The notes beneath the pieces are model-generated. The model made no database searches and had not been told where the DNA came from. It worked only from the letters and a program-made list of their open reading frames with translations. Positions 14,325 to 21,679 of a stretch of 50,509 nt of DNA are shown here, one piece after another. How positions within the stretch are numbered: the stretch's first letter is position 1; every line of letters begins with the position of its first letter. Origin of the DNA: an uncultured archaeon. Its GTDB lineage: Archaea; Iainarchaeota; Iainarchaeia; Iainarchaeales; JAAZKV01. Position numbers and translations under genes: made by a program. Where the stretch lies: NCBI GenBank assembly GCA_964461205.1, contig CAYWUL010000003.1, forward strand, positions 4,232-54,740, read 5' to 3'.

Positions 14325-16054
14325 TCTTCTTCACCGAATTCAGTTCTTCTTTCTAAAAATTGTTTTGCTTGCTCACTAACTTCTTTTATGCTACGAATAT
14401 TTTGATCCACAAGTTTTTCTAAAAACATTTTTCTTAAATTAATTTCTGATTCTATTTTTGTTTTTGACAAACCAGTAAAACTTTCTAATTCTTTTAAGTA
14501 TTCACTTTCAAATAATGTTCTTTCAATAGTGTCTTTTACTGGGTCTCTATCAAACAAAGTTTTTGTCTTTATTTTTCCTTCTATTCCTCCAACAACTTCT
14601 GCTATCTCACTCACTCTTCTAATAGTTCCTTTTTTTCTATCATGATATCTGTGTTCTACAATAATCATATCTAATCCGGATAACATTACTTCGGGAACAT
14701 TCATTGGTGGGCTAGTCACACGTATTAATGTTTCTCGTGGGCTATTTGCGTGCACTGTCCCGAGGCACCCATCATGCCCCGTATTCACTGCAGTGAATAA
14801 GGTAAATGCTTCTTCGTGTCTTACTTCTCCGACAATTATTCTGTCAGGTCTCATTCTTAGAGAATTTTTTGCAAGTATGTCCATTTTTAGTTCTCCGGTT
14901 CCTTCTAATCCTGGCGGTCTAGCTTCTAGTCTAATCCAGTGTTTTAATGGTAAATTTAGTTCTGCTGTGTCTTCGATTGATACTATTCTTTCTCTGTCAG
15001 GAATAAATGCGGCAAGTACATTTAACAAAGTTGTTTTTCCGGAACCCGTTCCTCCCGAAATAAGCATGTTTGCTGGTTTTGCTCCTAAACCATCTACACA
15101 AATCCATAGGAATGCTGCTGCTTCGCTTGAGATTGTTCCCATCCTTATCATATCAATTATTGAATAAGGATCTTCTCTGAATTTTCTTATTGTTAATGTT
15201 CCTCCACTAATACTTGCGGGAGGAATAGTTGCGTTTACTCTGCTTCCGTCTCCCAATCGTGCATCAAGTAATGGAGATGCAACATCAACTCTTCTTCCTA
15301 CTTCTCTTGCAATTTTATTTATTAGGTCTTCAATTTCTTGTTCTGAAAAAAATTCGATATTTGTTTGCATCATTTCATATTTTCTATGAAAAACATATAC
15401 TGGCGTTTTTGAACCAACAATCATGATTTCTTCTAATTGATCATCTTTTACAAGATCATCAATTAATCCGTATCCAACCATCTCTCTTACTACTGCGCTT
15501 GCATAGAATGATGTTCTTGATGGAGGAATTTTTAGAGAAGGATTGCTCTTTATTATGTCAAGAACTTTTTCTTTGTAAACAATTCTTCTTTCTTCAGCAT
15601 CTCTTATTTTGTAAGGAGCAATACTAATCAATCGTGTTGTTGCTTCTTTTATTGTATTAATTATTCTTCGCTCTGCTTGTGTCGGTCTTATTGTTGGCAC
15701 AAAATAATATTTTAATGGCTTACCCGGAATTTCATAAATAGTTGTTTTTCCATATTGTTCGATTTCAATTTTTTTTCCAGTCTCAAGTTCTTTTTCAACA
15801 AATGTTTTTTCTTTTGTTTTCATTGGTTCGATTTCAAGATCTTCCTTTATTCCAACTTTTTCTTTAAACCCCGCCATGTCTTCTTTTTTTACACTCTCAA
15901 TAGCATCTCTATTTTTTTCATCTTTGTCTTCTTTAACAACTTTTTTCTTTTCTTTTTCTTCACTAGCACTACTTTTTTCAGTGACAGATGGTTGTGTGTC
16001 GGATGACTTGGTTTTTGCTTCATTCATCATATCTTGTAAGTAATCAGTTGTCAT
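14321..16054 (-). CDS. cpaF: CpaF/TadA/VirB11-family pilus assembly ATPase
   Basis: GGTGSGKTT, IEDTAEL, LRMRPDRIIVGEVR, NTGHDG..GTVHAN; charged low-complexity N-terminus. Confidence 0.93.
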   Translation of the reverse strand: MTTDYLQDMMNEAKTKSSDTQPSVTEKSSASEEKEKKKVVKEDKDEKNRDAIESVKKEDMAGFKEKVGIKEDLEIEPMKTKEKTFVEKELETGKKIEIEQYGKTTIYEIPGKPLKYYFVPTIRPTQAERRIINTIKEATTRLISIAPYKIRDAEERRIVYKEKVLDIIKSNPSLKIPPSRTSFYASAVVREMVGYGLIDDLVKDDQLEEIMIVGSKTPVYVFHRKYEMMQTNIEFFSEQEIEDLINKIAREVGRRVDVASPLLDARLGDGSRVNATIPPASISGGTLTIRKFREDPYSIIDMIRMGTISSEAAAFLWICVDGLGAKPANMLISGGTGSGKTTLLNVLAAFIPDRERIVSIEDTAELNLPLKHWIRLEARPPGLEGTGELKMDILAKNSLRMRPDRIIVGEVRHEEAFTLFTAVNTGHDGCLGTVHANSPRETLIRVTSPPMNVPEVMLSGLDMIIVEHRYHDRKKGTIRRVSEIAEVVGGIEGKIKTKTLFDRDPVKDTIERTLFESEYLKELESFTGLSKTKIESEINLRKMFLEKLVDQNIRSIKEVSEQAKQFLERRTEFGEEE

Positions 16055-16111
16055 GCTAGAATTAGTGTATTCTTTATTTTAATTCTTTCGTAGAGCGTGT
16101 TTTTTGATTAT

Positions 16112-16172
16112 TTAGTTTTTCTTTTCTGCAATCTCTTTTTGTAGTTTTTCGATGAATTTTTCTGTTTTCCTT
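16112..16172 (-). pseudogene. Orphan thrS 3'-end fragment no. 1
   Basis: Encodes RKTEKFIEKLQKEIAEKKN*, versus intact MKTDKFIEKLQKEIKDKK*. Confidence 0.9.
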
Positions 16173-16236
16173 GGCCGATTTCGTACGGCCGGTCCGAAGA
16201 ATTTTGGTATTGCTTTTTGCAATACCAAGAAAACGA
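16173..16236 (+). repeat. Structured element copy E1
   Basis: GGCCG-ATTTCGTA-CGGCC-GGTC-CGAAG, then TTGGTATTGC-TTTTT-GCAATACCAA hairpin. Confidence 0.85.
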
Positions 16237-16311
16237 TTACTTTTTTTCTTTTATCTCTGTTAATAGGTTTTTAATGAATTTTTCTGCTTTCATTACTTCG
16301 TGTTTCCACTT
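16237..16311 (-). pseudogene. Orphan thrS 3'-end fragment no. 2
   Basis: Encodes KHEVMKAEKFIKNLLTEIKEKK*, versus intact KQEEMKTDKFIEKLQKEIKDKK*. Confidence 0.85.
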
Positions 16312-16372
16312 GGCCCGTTTCGTCAGGCCACGCCGATTGACTCATGCACTACTTACTGTAGTGCGATAGTAG
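16312..16372 (+). repeat. Structured element copy E2 (most degenerate)
   Basis: GGCCC-GTTTCGTC-AGGCC-ACGC-CGA, then GCACTAC-TTACT-GTAGTGC hairpin. Confidence 0.75.
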
Positions 16373-18103
16373 CTATTTTTTGTCTTTGATTTCTTTTTGT
16401 AGTTTTTCGATGAACTTGTCTGTTTTCATTTCTTCTTGTTTTCCTTGTCTATCTCTTATTGTAACACTCTTTGCTTTCACTTCTTTTTCTCCAACAACTA
16501 TTATGTAAGGGACTTTTTGTTTTTGCGCCTCGCGAATTCTATAACCAAGAGATTCATTTCTGTCATCTAATTTGCTTCTAATTTCTTTGTCAATTAATGT
16601 ATCGTTTAATTCTCTTGCATATTTTGCGAATGTTTCTGCAACAGGAATTATTACGATTTGCCTTGGTGCAAGCCACAACGGGAACGCGCCGCCAAAATGT
16701 TCGATTAATATTCCAACAAATCTTTCAAAGCTTCCAAATGGGGCTCTGTGAATCATTATTGGTCTGTGTTCCTTTCCATCTTTTCCAACATAATTCAAAT
16801 CAAATCTTTCTGGCAAATTATAATCTAATTGTATTGTTCCTGTTTGCCATTCTCTTCCAATAGAATCATTGATTACAATATCTGCTTTTGGACCATAGAA
16901 TGCTGCGTCTCCTTCTTCAATTGTGTATTTGATTTTTGTTTCTTTTAGAACTTCAATAATTTCTTTTGTAGCTTTTTTCCATGATTCTGTTGAACCAACA
17001 TACTTATTGCTTTTTGGATCTCGCGTTCCTATTCTTACTCTGAAATCTTTTAGTCCAAGAGTATTCATTACATGCATTACTAATTCAAAAACTCCTGCAA
17101 ATTCGCTCTTCACTTGTTCGTGTGTACAAAAAATGTGTGCGTCGTCTTGTGTGAATCCTCTTACTCTTAATAACCCACTTAATTCTCCACTCTTTTCGAA
17201 TCTATATACTGTCCCCATTTCACTTAATCTTAATGGGAGTTCGCGATAACTTCTTTTTCCTTTCATATAATATTGTATATGAAAAGGGCAATTCATTGGT
17301 TTTAATAAATATTCTTCTTCGTCAATTTTTATTGGAGAATACATCATTTCTTTATAATGTTCATAGTGCCCAGAAATTTTGAACAATTCTAATCTTCCAA
17401 TGTGTGGGGTCATTACAAAATCGTATCCTCTTTTTTGTTGTTCTTTTATTAAGAAATCTTGTAATTGCATTCTTAGCATTGTTCCGTTTGGTGTCCATAT
17501 TGGTAGGCCTTTTCCGACTTGTTCACTTATCAAATAAAGGTCAAGTTCTTTTCCAAGTTTTATATTTGAGTTTTCTTCTGCTTTTTTTCTATTAGCAATC
17601 CATTGATCTAATTCTTGTTTTGTCTTAAAACTAATTCCATATACTCTTGTTAGTTGTGCATTTTTTTCATTACCTTTCCAGTATGCGGAAGAAATTTTTA
17701 ATAATTTTACTGCTTTTATTTCGCTTGGTTTTTCTAAGTGTGGTCCCTTACAAAGATCTGTGAATGATCCGTTAGAATAAACAGTTACTTTTTTTTCACC
17801 CGCCTTTTCTAAATCATTAATCATTTCAACTTTGTATTTGTTATCTTTGAATAATTCTCTTGCTTCTTTTATTGTTTTTTCTTCACGAACCATTTTTCTG
17901 TTTTGTTTTACAATGTCCTTCATTTTCTTTTCTATTTTTATTAAATCTTCTTCTTTTATTCCTTGTTTTAATTCAAAGTCATAATGAAAACCGTTTTCTA
18001 TTGGCGGTCCGATAGCAATCGTCGCGGTTGGATAAATCTCCTTTAATGCTTCTGCAAATATGTGTGCTGTTGTGTGCCAAAATTTTTCCATTGATTTATC
18101 CAT
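16373..18103 (-). CDS. thrS: Threonine--tRNA ligase, bacterial-type, lacking the N-terminal TGS domain
   Basis: HTTAH and DLCKGPH editing domain, KPMNCPFH, LRVRGFTQDDAH, AFYGPK, IHRAPFGSFERF, anticodon-binding domain; GGAGG RBS. Confidence 0.97.
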   Translation of the reverse strand: MDKSMEKFWHTTAHIFAEALKEIYPTATIAIGPPIENGFHYDFELKQGIKEEDLIKIEKKMKDIVKQNRKMVREEKTIKEARELFKDNKYKVEMINDLEKAGEKKVTVYSNGSFTDLCKGPHLEKPSEIKAVKLLKISSAYWKGNEKNAQLTRVYGISFKTKQELDQWIANRKKAEENSNIKLGKELDLYLISEQVGKGLPIWTPNGTMLRMQLQDFLIKEQQKRGYDFVMTPHIGRLELFKISGHYEHYKEMMYSPIKIDEEEYLLKPMNCPFHIQYYMKGKRSYRELPLRLSEMGTVYRFEKSGELSGLLRVRGFTQDDAHIFCTHEQVKSEFAGVFELVMHVMNTLGLKDFRVRIGTRDPKSNKYVGSTESWKKATKEIIEVLKETKIKYTIEEGDAAFYGPKADIVINDSIGREWQTGTIQLDYNLPERFDLNYVGKDGKEHRPIMIHRAPFGSFERFVGILIEHFGGAFPLWLAPRQIVIIPVAETFAKYARELNDTLIDKEIRSKLDDRNESLGYRIREAQKQKVPYIIVVGEKEVKAKSVTIRDRQGKQEEMKTDKFIEKLQKEIKDKK

Positions 18104-18120
18104 AATTTAACCTCCAATAT

Positions 18121-18164
18121 AACAAAAATCCTGCTCGAAAACCTTTTTAAAATAGATTTTGAGC
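18121..18164 (-). promoter_or_regulatory. Putative attenuator hairpin between the leader peptide and thrS
   Basis: On the - strand: GCTC-AAAATCT...AGGTTTT-C-GAGC immediately after the leader stop, followed by AGGATTTTTGTT. Confidence 0.55.
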
Positions 18165-18221
18165 TTACGCCGTGGTCGTAGTTGTAACAGAAACAGTTTG
18201 TGAACTAGTAACTACATCCAT
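18165..18221 (-). CDS. Thr-rich leader peptide of thrS (MDVVTSSQTVSVTTTTTA)
   Basis: 18 codons with 7 Thr, including 5 consecutive (ACA ACT ACG ACC ACG); lies directly upstream of thrS. Confidence 0.8.
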   Translation of the reverse strand: MDVVTSSQTVSVTTTTTA

Positions 18222-18244
18222 AATATAATTCCAACAAATAGTTA

Positions 18245-18252
18245 TTTATAAA
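18245..18252 (-). promoter_or_regulatory. TATA box for the leader-thrS transcript
   Basis: TTTATAAA with 23 nt between it and the leader ATG, the spacing expected for a leaderless archaeal mRNA. Confidence 0.55.
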
Positions 18253-18295
18253 CTCGTTAAATTTGAATGTAATAATTTGTATAGTTTGATATTAT

Positions 18296-18408
18296 TTTAT
18301 CTCGTTGCTCTTTTGCATGGCCAATTCCGTATGGCCGGTCCGGAATACGCTTAATGTGTTACTTTCAGTGACACAACAGAGAATGTTTATCTCGTTGCTC
18401 TTTTGCAT
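18296..18408. repeat. Perfect 23-bp direct repeat (18296-18318 and 18386-18408) flanking element E3
   Basis: TTTATCTCGTTGCTCTTTTGCAT occurs twice. It spans the last codons and stop (CKRATR*) of ORF 18387-18839. Confidence 0.95.
18319..18386 (+). repeat. Structured element copy E3 (68 bp)
   Basis: GGCCA-ATTCCGTA-TGGCC-GGTC-CGGAAT, then GTGTTAC-TTTCA-GTGACAC, ending CAGAGAATGT. Confidence 0.92.
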
Positions 18409-18839
18409 CTTTCTTTTCCACAAATAGAATGAAATTCTGTACAATAAGTATTCCCGTCAACAGTTTTTTTGTATTTACAATTTTCCCAAGTAGCATTTCC
18501 ACAAAAAGTATCATTACTGCCTCTAATAACGTCTGCAATAATATTTCCATGCCGATTATCAATTTTTTGGTTTCCTCGGTGGATAATTGTTTCTTGTCTT
18601 CTTGGTATTTCTTCAACAACCGTTGAGTTTTCTTGTAAAGAATTTGTGGGTTTTTCGATTTGTGTTTCTATCCTTGATTCTTGTTGGTTGGCCCGATCTA
18701 TGGTTTCGCTTGATACTTGGTTTCCTTGAGTAGTATCAATTATTTGTCCTTGAGATCCAGAATTCTTTTTTTCTTCAAGTTTTTGTTGTATAAGTAGGTT
18801 AGTTCTTCTTGTGTCTTCAACAAAACTTTTAAAGGCCAT
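18387..18839 (-). CDS. Hypothetical protein with a polar linker and C-terminal Cys cluster
   Basis: 150-aa ORF with five Cys in the last 45 aa. Confidence 0.7.
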   Translation of the reverse strand: MAFKSFVEDTRRTNLLIQQKLEEKKNSGSQGQIIDTTQGNQVSSETIDRANQQESRIETQIEKPTNSLQENSTVVEEIPRRQETIIHRGNQKIDNRHGNIIADVIRGSNDTFCGNATWENCKYKKTVDGNTYCTEFHSICGKERCKRATR

Positions 18840-18943
18840 AATAGAACAAATTCTAAAAACAAATAAAAAGCTATTGACTAGTGGAAAATCGAATTTAAGT
18901 AATTAGTTTAAGTAATTTTTTGATTATTATTATTATTGTTATT

Positions 18944-19045
18944 ATGAGAACTACTTGCCCAGTTTGTGGAAGTACTAAATACAAGTTGATTCAAAAAGAG
19001 TATAAATGTGCCAAATGTCATTTTGTGAATAAGGTGGTAGGTTGA
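18944..19045 (+). CDS. 33-aa zinc-ribbon microprotein (not in the ORF track)
   Basis: MRTTCPVCGSTKYKLIQKEYKCAKCHFVNKVVG: CPxCG...CxxC. Confidence 0.75.
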   Translation: MRTTCPVCGSTKYKLIQKEYKCAKCHFVNKVVG

Positions 19046-19054
19046 TTTCTTCAG
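19042..19054 (+). pseudogene. Orphan nre 5'-end fragment no. 1
   Basis: AGGTGG RBS, then TTG ATT TCT TCA G (M-I-S-S versus intact M-I-S-P). The TTG overlaps the Zn-ribbon stop codon (TTGA). Confidence 0.55.
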
Positions 19055-19114
19055 GGCTCCTTTCGTCGAGCCGGAGCGAAGAATTTGGCGTTAACTTCGT
19101 TAACGACAGAAAGC
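19055..19114 (+). repeat. Structured element copy E4
   Basis: GGCTC-CTTTCGTC-GAGCC-GGAG-CGAAG, then CGTTAAC-TTC-GTTAACG, then ACAGAAAG. Confidence 0.85.
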
Positions 19115-19127
19115 AAAAGGTGATGTT

Positions 19128-19150
19128 GTGATTAGTCCAGAACTATGTAT
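19128..19150 (+). pseudogene. Orphan nre 5'-end fragment no. 2
   Basis: AGGTGA RBS, then GTG ATT AGT CCA GAA CTA TGT AT = MISPELC(I). Same peptide as intact nre but with different synonymous codons. Confidence 0.9.
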
Positions 19151-19218
19151 GGCCAATTTCGTATGGCCGGTTCGAAATACGCTTGATGTGCTACTTTCAG
19201 TAGCACTGCAGAGAATGT
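19151..19218 (+). repeat. Structured element copy E5 (68 bp)
   Basis: GGCCA-ATTTCGTA-TGGCC-GGTT-CGAAAT, then GTGCTAC-TTTCA-GTAGCAC, ending CAGAGAATGT. 59/68 identical to E3 by hand alignment. Confidence 0.92.
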
Positions 19219-19231
19219 TTGAGGTAATAGA

Positions 19232-20464
19232 ATGATTTCGCCTGAGTTGTGTATTAAGTGTAAGGGAAAGTTACTTTGTGGTTTAAAAAAATGCCCTATC
19301 TTAGAAAAGAATTTTTCTCAAACAAAAATAGTTTCAAAAATAAAGAACAACGAGTTTTCTGGTGCGACTCCGCCTGGGTTTTTTGTTTCTTGGCAGAATT
19401 ATCCAAAAGTCGCTGTTGCTCCTCTTTCTACCATTCCTGAAGAACTTTCTCCGTTAGCTGATGAACCCGAAAAATGGTATGGTCTTCCTCAAGAACAAAT
19501 AATTTCTTTTAGAGAATCCTTGCTAAGAAGTTACAAAAACATGCCAGTTTCATTAGCAGCAAATCCAAATTATGAGTTAATGGATTTTCAAGAACTAGCA
19601 ATGTCAGAAAAAGTAATGGATGTTGATGTAAAATTAAACAAGGCTCCTTCTGGGCAAACAAAATTTGATTCTTTTTCTGCACCAATGGGACCAAGTGCTG
19701 AACTAAATAAATTATCTTTAACAGAGAATTCTAAGATTCCACAAAAAATTGATTATTATTATTCTGATACAGACGCAAAATCAAATACTGCGTTGATAGA
19801 TTTGTTTGAACACGGTTTTTCAGTTTCAACCCTATCAAAAGTTTTGTCTTCTGGCTCACTTGGTGTAAAAAAGAATAGAAGAATTGTGCCTACAAGATGG
19901 TCAATCGTGGCAGCCCTCGATTCTATCGGAAAAAATTTAATAAATAAAATAAAAGAGTATTCTGTTATTGATTCTATTCAAGTTTTTGAAGATACTTATT
20001 TGGATAATCATTTTATAATAATGCTTTTACCAAAACCATGGTCGTTTGAACAGTTAGAAGTTTGGGTTCCTGGAAGTATTTGGAATATGGAAACCGCTTC
20101 CTCAAAAATAAAGATTTATCACGATCACGAAATGTTTGAAGGGATGAAAGGTTATGCGAATGAAGTTACTGGAGCATACTACGCAGTTCGTCTGCCGATT
20201 GTTGAATATTTAAGAGAAAAGAAAAAACAAGCAATGGTTGTAGTATTCAGAGAAATTGGAGATGGGTACAAGCTTCCGTTGGGTTCGTGGGTTTGTGGTG
20301 AAACGACAAAAGCTGCAATGCAAAAACAACCAAAAATATTTTCAAATGTAGATTTAGCTCTTGAATTTATTGGAAAAAGATTAAAAGTTCCAATCAATAA
20401 ATGGAAGAAAGAAAGTGTTGTCTTGGATTATTATAACAAGCAGAAAACTCTATTCGACTTTTGA
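19232..20464 (+). CDS. nreA: Nre DNA repair protein (DUF650/DUF651) with C-terminal PIP box
   Basis: CIKCKGKLLCGLKKCP, YPKV, RRIVPTRWSI, GAYYAVRL, C-terminal QKTLFDF. Confidence 0.92.
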   Translation: MISPELCIKCKGKLLCGLKKCPILEKNFSQTKIVSKIKNNEFSGATPPGFFVSWQNYPKVAVAPLSTIPEELSPLADEPEKWYGLPQEQIISFRESLLRSYKNMPVSLAANPNYELMDFQELAMSEKVMDVDVKLNKAPSGQTKFDSFSAPMGPSAELNKLSLTENSKIPQKIDYYYSDTDAKSNTALIDLFEHGFSVSTLSKVLSSGSLGVKKNRRIVPTRWSIVAALDSIGKNLINKIKEYSVIDSIQVFEDTYLDNHFIIMLLPKPWSFEQLEVWVPGSIWNMETASSKIKIYHDHEMFEGMKGYANEVTGAYYAVRLPIVEYLREKKKQAMVVVFREIGDGYKLPLGSWVCGETTKAAMQKQPKIFSNVDLALEFIGKRLKVPINKWKKESVVLDYYNKQKTLFDF

Positions 20465-21679
20465 CCAAATTAAACAACAACTCTTTTCTGGGCGTATTTT
20501 CTGTATTTTGCTTTGTGCTTCAAGTTTTGCTAAATGTTCACGTAATGTACTTCCACATATTTGTAATTTATTTCTGAGTTCTAATGAGTTTAGATTTTGA
20601 TTTGACAACAAGTCTAAAATCATTTCTTGTGTAATTCCATACGCACGTCTTTTCCATTTCCGATTTTGCCTTTCTACGATTTCTTTTAACAAGTGTTCTT
20701 TGTGAGCTAGTCCACATGTGGAAAATTTTGTTTCAAGTTTTTTACAATCATTAAGAAATTTTTGAGCATTTTTTAATGAGATTCTTACTCTATACATTTT
20801 TCCAGTCTTTTCTTGTTTTTCACTTATATTGCACGTTGAATATTTGAGTTTGTTTGTAATTTTTCTTATATCTTTTAAAAGATTTTTGTTTCCTGAATAA
20901 ATTTCAATTGTTTCTCCAATGTGTCCTTCATCTACAATGAATGCATTCAGGCCCGCCAGTAAGAAGTCATTTGACATTAATTCGATTTTTCTACTTATTC
21001 GAGATTTGTCCCAATGACAATCGCCTAGTTCTAAATATTCGTCAAGAAATACACTAATCACTTTTGGTATAGCAACCTTGGAATCTTCAGATATTTTAAT
21101 TTTAAAGTTTCCAAAGCAATTTTGTAATTTTTGTGCAAAATTATTTAATCCTTGTTTATTCACTTGACGATAATGTGATTGTTTTCCTTTTCCTCCCAGG
21201 TGGCCATCACCATATAAATGAAATGCGATTGAGACTAATTCAGGAGTTAGATAAATTGGAAAATCTATTTTAACTGGTGTACCACGTCCAGTTGAAGAAC
21301 AATCAACAAGGTTTTTTTCAACTTCTTTTAGTGTTTGTTTATTTTTTGATGATATTTCTATTATTGCCCACAATGGTATTCTTCTTGTTTTTTTACTTGT
21401 TTTTTCAATTCCATAAAACCAGTGTGATAATAAACCAACCCCAACTTTTGGATGAATATTATATTTTGCACGTTTATCATTTAAGTAGTTCGTAGCTTCT
21501 TTCCAAGAATCAAATGAGTCGATAAAGTTTTGAATGAATCTTTTTCGAAAGCGATCTTTAAGCATAATTGTTGTGTTTTTTGAAAAATCAACCAAGTGAA
21601 TTTCTTTGTATTGATTCATATAAGACTCTTTTTTTAGAGACTTATAATCGCTTTGGGAGTACAATGCCGGTGATCTCAT
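20450..21679 (-). CDS. Free-standing LAGLIDADG-type homing endonuclease with C-terminal winged HTH
   Basis: LTPELVSIAFHLYGDG and LAGLNAFIVDEG resemble the two LAGLIDADG helices. C-terminal ILDLL..LNSLEL..LQICGSTLREHLAKLE is HTH-like. No intein Cys...His-Asn ends are visible. Confidence 0.72.
   Translation of the reverse strand: MRSPALYSQSDYKSLKKESYMNQYKEIHLVDFSKNTTIMLKDRFRKRFIQNFIDSFDSWKEATNYLNDKRAKYNIHPKVGVGLLSHWFYGIEKTSKKTRRIPLWAIIEISSKNKQTLKEVEKNLVDCSSTGRGTPVKIDFPIYLTPELVSIAFHLYGDGHLGGKGKQSHYRQVNKQGLNNFAQKLQNCFGNFKIKISEDSKVAIPKVISVFLDEYLELGDCHWDKSRISRKIELMSNDFLLAGLNAFIVDEGHIGETIEIYSGNKNLLKDIRKITNKLKYSTCNISEKQEKTGKMYRVRISLKNAQKFLNDCKKLETKFSTCGLAHKEHLLKEIVERQNRKWKRRAYGITQEMILDLLSNQNLNSLELRNKLQICGSTLREHLAKLEAQSKIQKIRPEKSCCLIWSKVE

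Follow-up and report, generated by a model that had tools for sequence, protein, structure and literature searches.

Small folded elements at duplicated gene ends

The 50,509-nt stretch of contig CAYWUL010000003.1 analysed here (the window), from an uncultured lake archaeon, carries five copies of one small element, E1 to E5, all on the plus strand, which lie at the 3' end of thrS, at the 3' end of a gene encoding a 150-aa protein and at the start of the Nre gene (Table 1). A strict motif written from these copies matches the window five times, against 0.07 matches expected from shuffled sequence, and none of 100 shuffles reached five. All five copies share a G+C-rich stem of 5 bp (stem 1) that encloses an 8-nt loop containing TTYCG; its closing strand is followed by a 4-nt linker, a CGR triplet that can pair with the YCG of the loop, a spacer and a second hairpin (hairpin 2), the sequence of which is unrelated from copy to copy. 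In E2, the fifth pair of stem 1 is a C-A mismatch and the pairing between the loop and its downstream partner spans just 3 bp. This layout is as an earlier, sequence-only reading of the window had described it: stem 1 varies as GGCCA/TGGCC, GGCCG/CGGCC and GGCTC/GAGCC, the lengths of loop and linker are always the same, loop and partner change together between E3 and E5 (ATTCCG/CGGAAT versus ATTTCG/CGAAAT), and hairpin 2 keeps its pairing across five unrelated sequences. That reading had also assigned the motif to no known family, in line with our Rfam search, which returned no match at gathering scores across the window, self-cleaving ribozymes (HDV-like, hatchet, pistol, twister and others) included; extending the search of positions 15900-19500 up to E = 10 gave four weak unrelated matches, none of them on any element.

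What the sequence-only reading had missed are the ties of the motif to duplicated gene ends and to tRNA introns, and these change the identity that we assign to it. The gene end that follows each window copy is also present immediately before it, as a duplicate that runs right up to the first base of the element. There are three thrS tails, all open and each finishing with a stop codon. The end of the 150-aa gene and the Nre start are single and unduplicated in the seven related species examined, and the thrS-to-Nre regions of 11 related species together hold a single copy of the element, at the thrS end of one species. Moreover, in contigs from lake metagenomes the thrS end and the 150-aa-gene end of other strains are occupied by elements of different types, a comparison which is unable to show excision. 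The single, unduplicated sites in relatives and the different elements in other strains indicate that the window copies are recent and recurrent insertions. At the Nre gene, the zinc-ribbon open reading frame (ORF) upstream still has a stop codon that overlaps the outermost start, as in relatives, and we therefore take this start to be the native copy and the element with the inner copy to be the newcomer. The second Nre start encodes the same seven residues as the real start with synonymous codon differences only; the Ser codon is TCT, AGT and TCG in the three starts, and the starts resemble those of other species. Splicing-out of E5 together with the second Nre start was considered and is unsupported, as no strict bulge-helix-bulge motif could be placed at the Nre-start copies. 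The outermost Nre start also reads in frame through E4 for about 30 codons to a stop (19042-19130), which is probably meaningless.

Across many genomes, a flanking duplication (z at least 6, ending at most 3 nt from the first base of the element) is present in 35 of 107 contexts. It reaches the first base with no gap in 31 of these 35, and the duplications are 16-70 nt long and 81-100% identical. The sequence 5' of the element is biased towards T, which occupies position -7 in 47/67 and position -5 in 46/67 sites of the genus to which this genome belongs (background 38%), and the same positions in 26/44 and 25/44 sites of other genomes (background 25%). Three young insertions were inspected by eye, and in each an overlap of 6-7 nt is seen between the A/T-rich 3' tail and the beginning of the target duplication.

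Table 1. Elements, gene-end copies and working gene ends in the window.
Feature	Position	Strand	Evidence	Remarks
Outermost extra thrS 3' end	16118..16172	-	Repeat family D1; ORF 16112..16228; duplication statistics	Open tail with stop codon; ends exactly at E1 first base
E1	16173..16236	+	Motif match; structure model 47.6 bits	Stem 1, 8-nt loop, 4-nt linker, loop partner, hairpin 2
Second extra thrS 3' end	16240..16311	-	Repeat search; duplication z 7.2	Ends exactly at E2 first base
E2	16312..16375	+	Motif match; structure model 62.8 bits	3' end against stop codon of opposite-strand thrS (distance -3 to ORF end)
3' end of working thrS gene (16373..18103)	16376..16430	-	Repeat search, ORF list	Third repeat member
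Copy of 150-aa gene 3' end with stop codon	18296..18318	-	Repeat D10, 23 nt, 100% identical	Ends at E3 first base
E3	18319..18385	+	Motif match; structure model 76.7 bits	
E3 stem 1	18319-18323 with 18332-18336			Loop 18324-18331; linker 18337-18340
E3 loop partner	18341-18346			Hairpin 2: 18355-18363 with 18367-18375
Real end of 150-aa gene (18387..18839), matching 23 nt	18386..18408	-	Repeat search, ORF list	
Outermost Nre ribosome-binding region and first codons	19031..19054	+		Ends at E4 first base
E4	19055..19118	+	Motif match; structure model 23.1 bits	Divergent subfamily; relatives in this genome's two tRNA-Glu introns
Second Nre start copy	19117..19150	+	ORF 19128..19235	Ends at E5 first base
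E5	19151..19217	+	Motif match; structure model 82.7 bits	Best match
Ribosome-binding region and first codons of working Nre gene (19232..20464)	19221..19254	+	Nre_N 1e-89, Nre_C 1.9e-31	

Conservation of the fold across genomes

The fold was followed with a covariance model built from nine copies, which holds stem 1 and hairpin 2 and leaves the pseudoknot out, so that the resulting alignments are not fitted to the pseudoknot pairs. In 65 distinct copies from the genus of this archaeon, stem 1 is paired in 92.9% of cases with both-side changes at 5/5 pairs, hairpin 2 is paired in 96.7% with both-side changes at 8/8 pairs, and the observed covariation score was reached by none of 500 shuffles. 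The loop measures 8 nt in 64 of these copies and the linker 4 nt in all 65, with 30 different linker sequences among them; fixed lengths of loop and linker are what a compact H-type pseudoknot would require. The pairing between loop and downstream partner was counted in two further sets. Among the 45 distinct 30-nt starts of the strict-motif set, pair 9-25 is U-A in 36, C-G in 8, U-G in 1 and never unpaired. A combined set of 148 distinct copies, from 12 genomes of the genus and about 14 of other genera, includes 142 copies of several families with intact stem-1 geometry, and here pair 9-25 is U-A in 98, C-G in 30, G-C in 8, U-G in 2 and unpaired in 4; pair 10-24 is C-G in 135, U-G in 2, G-C in 1 and unpaired in 4; and pair 11-23 is G-C in 133, C-G in 3, A-U in 1, G-U in 1 and A-C in 4. 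Both-side changes are thus seen at all three core pseudoknot pairs. The candidate extension pairs 8-26, 7-27 and 6-28 are paired in 69%, 61% and 47% of cells in the own-genus alignment, levels at which constraint is not demonstrated.

As a negative control we used a strict-motif scan of a species-genome collection, which gave 120 loci, nearly all of them chance matches in GC-rich bacteria and three of them true archaeal copies; of 118 such chance matches, in records of unrelated bacteria that are mostly GC-rich, 54 have a standard pair 9-25. On a tree built from the short element copies the state of pair 9-25 changes at least 14 times, and 13 independent pairs of copies differ in the same direction, 3 of them on supported branches; with so few on supported branches the tree-based significance is weak, and the case rests on the counts and the pair types. 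Minimum-energy folds retain stem 1 and hairpin 2 in 10 of 15 contexts and adopt alternative pairings in the rest. We conclude that the motif is structured, with hairpin 2 following an H-type pseudoknot, and that compensatory changes keep this fold. The proposal of such a fold in the sequence-only reading is upheld in the enlarged alignments, in which the fold is conserved and the sequence varies.

The same reading had taken a T-G wobble in E3 as a sign that the plus strand is the one that folds. The stems of the 65 own-genus copies contain 11 G-T or T-G and 23 A-C or C-A oppositions, counts that favour no strand, so that the single wobble in E3 is no argument for the plus strand. A C-A opposition is conserved in stem 1 of one subfamily and would be a wobble pair on the opposite strand, and the interleaved pairing of the pseudoknot can form on either strand. 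Copies occur in either orientation relative to neighbouring genes and to the tRNA that holds them, and with orientations mixed in this way a cis-acting RNA role is not supported. Among 18 copies in this genome, the 3' end abuts the stop end of an opposite-strand ORF in 5, and the 5' end lies at most 2 nt after a same-strand stop codon in 2.

Of 196 genomes of the same order searched with the strict motif, 12 contain it, with 53 occurrences in all; a reversed control gave 3. The structure model gives 79 matches in 12/12 genomes of the genus, with 1 to 19 per genome, and has matches in 51 of 151 sampled genomes and in 25 of 65 genera of the order. Elements of the family have been gained and lost between close species. 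In related species, tandem arrays (loci L207, L240 and L194) consist of two or three near-identical repeats of the element with a spacer of 37-60 nt.

Elements within and beside tRNA genes

The window itself has no tRNA genes, and all five of its copies lie outside such genes. Two of the 7 strict-motif copies in this genome do have the location of an archaeal bulge-helix-bulge tRNA intron: the element lies sense in the 79-nt intron of tRNA-Ser(UGA) and antisense in the 106-nt intron of tRNA-Tyr. The splice motif of such introns consists of a 4-bp helix with a 3-nt bulge on either side at the exon borders; for both genes a reading by hand gave a candidate helix with 3 of the 4 central pairs. 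A splicing endonuclease gene is present. Of the 12 species of the genus, 6 have a tRNA-Ser(UGA) gene without an intron, 5 have introns of another family there, and the element-type intron is present in this genome only. For tRNA-Tyr, the same genus includes one species without an intron, one with an intron of 37 nt and three with an intron of 106-116 nt in which the element lies at the exon-2 border. In addition, both tRNA-Glu genes (C9:21806-21959 and C20:20-179; loci L188 and L189) carry introns, of 81 and 87 nt, that begin with a flipped E4 stem and share the downstream motifs of E4 without the TTYCG loop. A tRNA gene is present in 34 of 111 contexts of 660 nt, and in six cases the first base of the element lies at most 1 nt from a tRNA 5' or 3' end. 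The element hence occurs as part of tRNA introns and at the ends of both protein and tRNA genes.

Several further observations were made at tRNA genes. In five related species (loci L256, L259, L261, L262 and L263), tRNA-Ser(UGA) carries a second, unrelated family of introns, 83-121 nt long, which form a purine/pyrimidine-tract hairpin at nearly the same anticodon-loop position as the pseudoknot element in this genome. A similar hairpin module follows the element beside tRNA genes in another genus (L013, L021, L041, L043 and L048). Two of these loci also have head-to-head elements (447 (+) and 448 (-) at L041; also L043), the first bases of which are 22 nt apart with a leftover tRNA-Leu 3' end between them. 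In the 783-kb genome, 17 tRNA genes were recognised without an intron option and 25 when introns of up to 150 nt were allowed.

A possible route of movement and its alternatives

The best explanation, which we regard as an even call, sees in the family a set of protein-less mobile elements that measure only about 55-130 nt and occur in an archaeal order with small genomes (DPANN type). The motif would be the conserved 5' module of such a non-autonomous element, and its fold would label the 5' end for an enzyme during a single-stranded stage. The compact pseudoknot and hairpin would form while the element is single-stranded, as DNA or RNA, and a cellular or other enzyme would recognise this fold and set the 5' end of the element at the first base of stem 1. 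The target after which that end would then be joined is T-rich, with a preference for T at -7, -5 and -1; the 3' tail, rich in A/T, would join nearby, possibly through short homology, and repair synthesis between both joins would produce the duplication of 16-70 nt. We believe that insertions near a gene start or stop may survive because the duplication restores the gene end, and those in an anticodon loop because the splicing endonuclease removes the element with the intron; the survivors would be only those insertions that leave the gene intact or spliceable.

A number of points weigh against this explanation. No mobilising enzyme was identified, and no transposase-like gene lies inside or beside the copies. 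Reverse transcriptase (PF00078) and the IS200-type Y1 transposase (PF01797) were found in none of six genomes, namely this one and five element-rich ones, and a search of this genome, 85% complete, gave no tyrosine recombinase (PF00589). The mutual information of positions in the flank with those in the element is at most 0.22 bits throughout and gives no guide-target signal, and a pairing of this kind between flank and element is rejected on these values. The 7 public runs listed included no RNA run. The wobble counts settle neither the strand nor whether DNA or RNA folds, and the short homology at the 3' join is a weak point that rests on just three insertions read by eye. Finally, the synonymous-only differences among the Nre starts poorly fit a simple duplication followed by decay; they suggest that elements can come in with part of a foreign allele, or that the gene was exchanged with such an allele afterwards. 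One ORF was considered as a source of the enzyme. It encodes 409 aa on the minus strand (20450..21679), overlaps the end of the Nre gene and has two matches that fall short of the Pfam cut-offs, a weak LAGLIDADG-like one and one to a helix-turn-helix; a full-length relative, with one in-frame TGA, lies at the same place in 1 of 11 related species. It was rejected as the mobilising enzyme, since only 2 of the 12 species in the genus have it at full length and two element-rich species lack it.

Of the alternatives, the one that survives best, which we nevertheless consider rather unlikely, is that the fold serves tolerance and not movement: being nearly palindromic, it would keep the insert self-folded in transcripts of either direction, the pre-tRNA would still form its splice motif, neighbouring mRNAs would be undisturbed, and host selection would keep the fold. 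The element does work both ways inside introns of single-copy tRNA genes of a genome that has the splicing endonuclease, and the absence of a strand preference in the wobble counts and the retention of stem 1 and hairpin 2 in most minimum-energy folds are in agreement with such a role. However, most copies lie outside tRNA genes and many of them are probably untranscribed or antisense to their neighbours; tolerance would need no fixed 8-nt loop, 4-nt linker or conserved loop sequence with its partner, and it leaves the sharp 5' boundary and the target bias unexplained.

A little less probable again is the idea that these are miniature integrative elements, in which a tyrosine recombinase, either of the host (Xer-type) or an integrase of a virus or plasmid, acts in trans on a small folded attachment site. 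Integration would take place, in the manner of integrative elements at tRNA genes, by recombination with a short target stretch carried on the element. Copies in another genus lie between duplicated tRNA 3' ends, an arrangement of the classic attL/attR type, the gene-end copy on the element side can differ synonymously from the displaced one as if it came from another lineage, and tyrosine recombinases are present in all five of the other element-rich genomes searched. Against this, dozens of unrelated targets would each need a matching core, the duplications vary in length from 16 to 70 nt, the 85%-complete genome studied here yielded no recombinase gene, and by coordinates none of the additional recombinase genes of one element-rich genome lies near a copy.

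The sequence-only reading had suggested that the motif possibly cleaves itself at the N/GGC junction, and a self-cleaving ribozyme that cuts its own 5' edge would free the element RNA from its host transcript. The 5' boundary is indeed sharp and lies at the base of a compact pseudoknot, and in the tRNA-Glu introns a variant of stem 1 starts at the first intron base. Yet the first pair of stem 1 is G-C in 32, C-G in 24, A-U in 5 and U-A in 2 of the own-genus copies, so that GGC at the proposed cut is not conserved; the two loop T's are the only well-conserved unpaired bases, the linker being unconserved, which leaves neither the conserved catalytic core nor the conserved cleavage-site context expected of such a ribozyme; and no Rfam ribozyme family matches. 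The unconserved first base, together with an orientation that is independent of host transcription, argues against a self-cleaving RNA, which we consider highly improbable. The part of the earlier reading that described a new structured motif thus stands, and the self-cleaving role it attached to this motif is probably wrong. Equally improbable is that the copies serve neighbouring genes, as small RNA genes or as regulatory elements or terminators. The T-rich tail after hairpin 2 in many copies and the several copies that abut stop codons could speak for this reading, but it is at odds with the absence of a conserved promoter (the 5' flank being the variable target), with a presence at housekeeping genes that varies between close species and with the mixed orientation.

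Several known systems share features with a protein-less mobile element of this kind and differ from it in others. In IS200/IS605-type elements strand-folded hairpins near the end define the cut site, the target lies immediately 5' of the left end and no target duplication is made. Like these and their miniature derivatives, the present element has folded hairpins near its end and a target directly 5' of its left end; it differs in its long duplications, in the lack of a Y1 transposase in the genomes searched and in the missing guide-target covariation. SINE-like (short interspersed nuclear element-like) retroposition and transposon-derived eukaryotic introns involve variable duplications, an A/T-rich 3' end, no encoded protein, and insertions that can become introns. 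The archaeal elements resemble them in all four respects, unlike them are found in genomes in which reverse transcriptase was not detected, and would have their introns removed by an archaeal protein endonuclease and not by a spliceosome. A classical miniature inverted-repeat transposable element, whose target duplications are short and fixed in length, does not agree with the variable duplications of 16-70 nt; terminal inverted repeats were not systematically searched for. As in integrative elements of the tyrosine-integrase type, a partial copy of the target gene lies at both ends, but at 55-130 nt the element encodes no integrase. Integron attC sites have conserved core sites at both ends and form cassette arrays next to an integrase; the ends of the present element, by eye, are variable stem bases.

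Two further parallels concern archaeal tRNA introns. In the parts of the sources available, the transposed bulge-helix-bulge tRNA introns of Thermoproteales are described as related short sequences in introns of different tRNA genes of one genome (Fujishima et al., 2010; cited via PMC10714607 and 10.64898/2026.10.13.758758). Here the related sequences lie in the introns of tRNA-Ser and tRNA-Tyr, with a variant in the two tRNA-Glu genes, and both cases share the implication that introns move as DNA. Compared with what these sources give for Thermoproteales, most of our copies lie outside tRNA genes, at the ends of protein genes and tRNAs, and they come with long target duplications, either orientation and a conserved pseudoknotted fold, in an order of DPANN type. 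Similarly, the tRNA disruption model for Caldiarchaeum subterraneum, as far as the available text sets it out, ties intron gain and a partial tRNA copy to a mobile element in a natural population (Sugahara et al., 2012; PMC3293823); that element is 1.8 kb long and encodes a recombinase, unlike the non-coding elements of 55-130 nt reported here. No description of such elements was found in the literature searched. In the accessible portions of that literature, the arrival of archaeal tRNA introns remains an open question (10.64898/2026.10.13.758758) and the link between mobile DNA and intron gain is treated as open (10.64898/2026.10.13.758758; PMC10714607; PMC3293823).

Finally, one genus shows side by side intron-free tRNA genes, genes with short introns and genes whose intron holds a recognisable mobile element, and the same element is found freshly inserted at protein-gene ends with a duplicated target. 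These three intron states, together with the fresh insertions, make intron gain directly testable. The findings point to mobilisation without a known transposase, reverse transcriptase or element-borne integrase, and the conserved pseudoknot offers a concrete experimental handle. Going further, we tentatively raise the possibility, in which we place less confidence than in the mobile element itself, of an undescribed form of archaeal DNA movement. Through its pseudoknot, a protein-less single strand of about 65 nt would steer enzymes of host replication, repair or RNA processing towards its own insertion, which would leave a long duplication. Such a process would be the origin, long looked for, of tRNA introns in archaea and of the rare introns or split ends of protein genes. 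The element family links mobile DNA with the gain of tRNA introns and may reveal how such introns arise in archaea.

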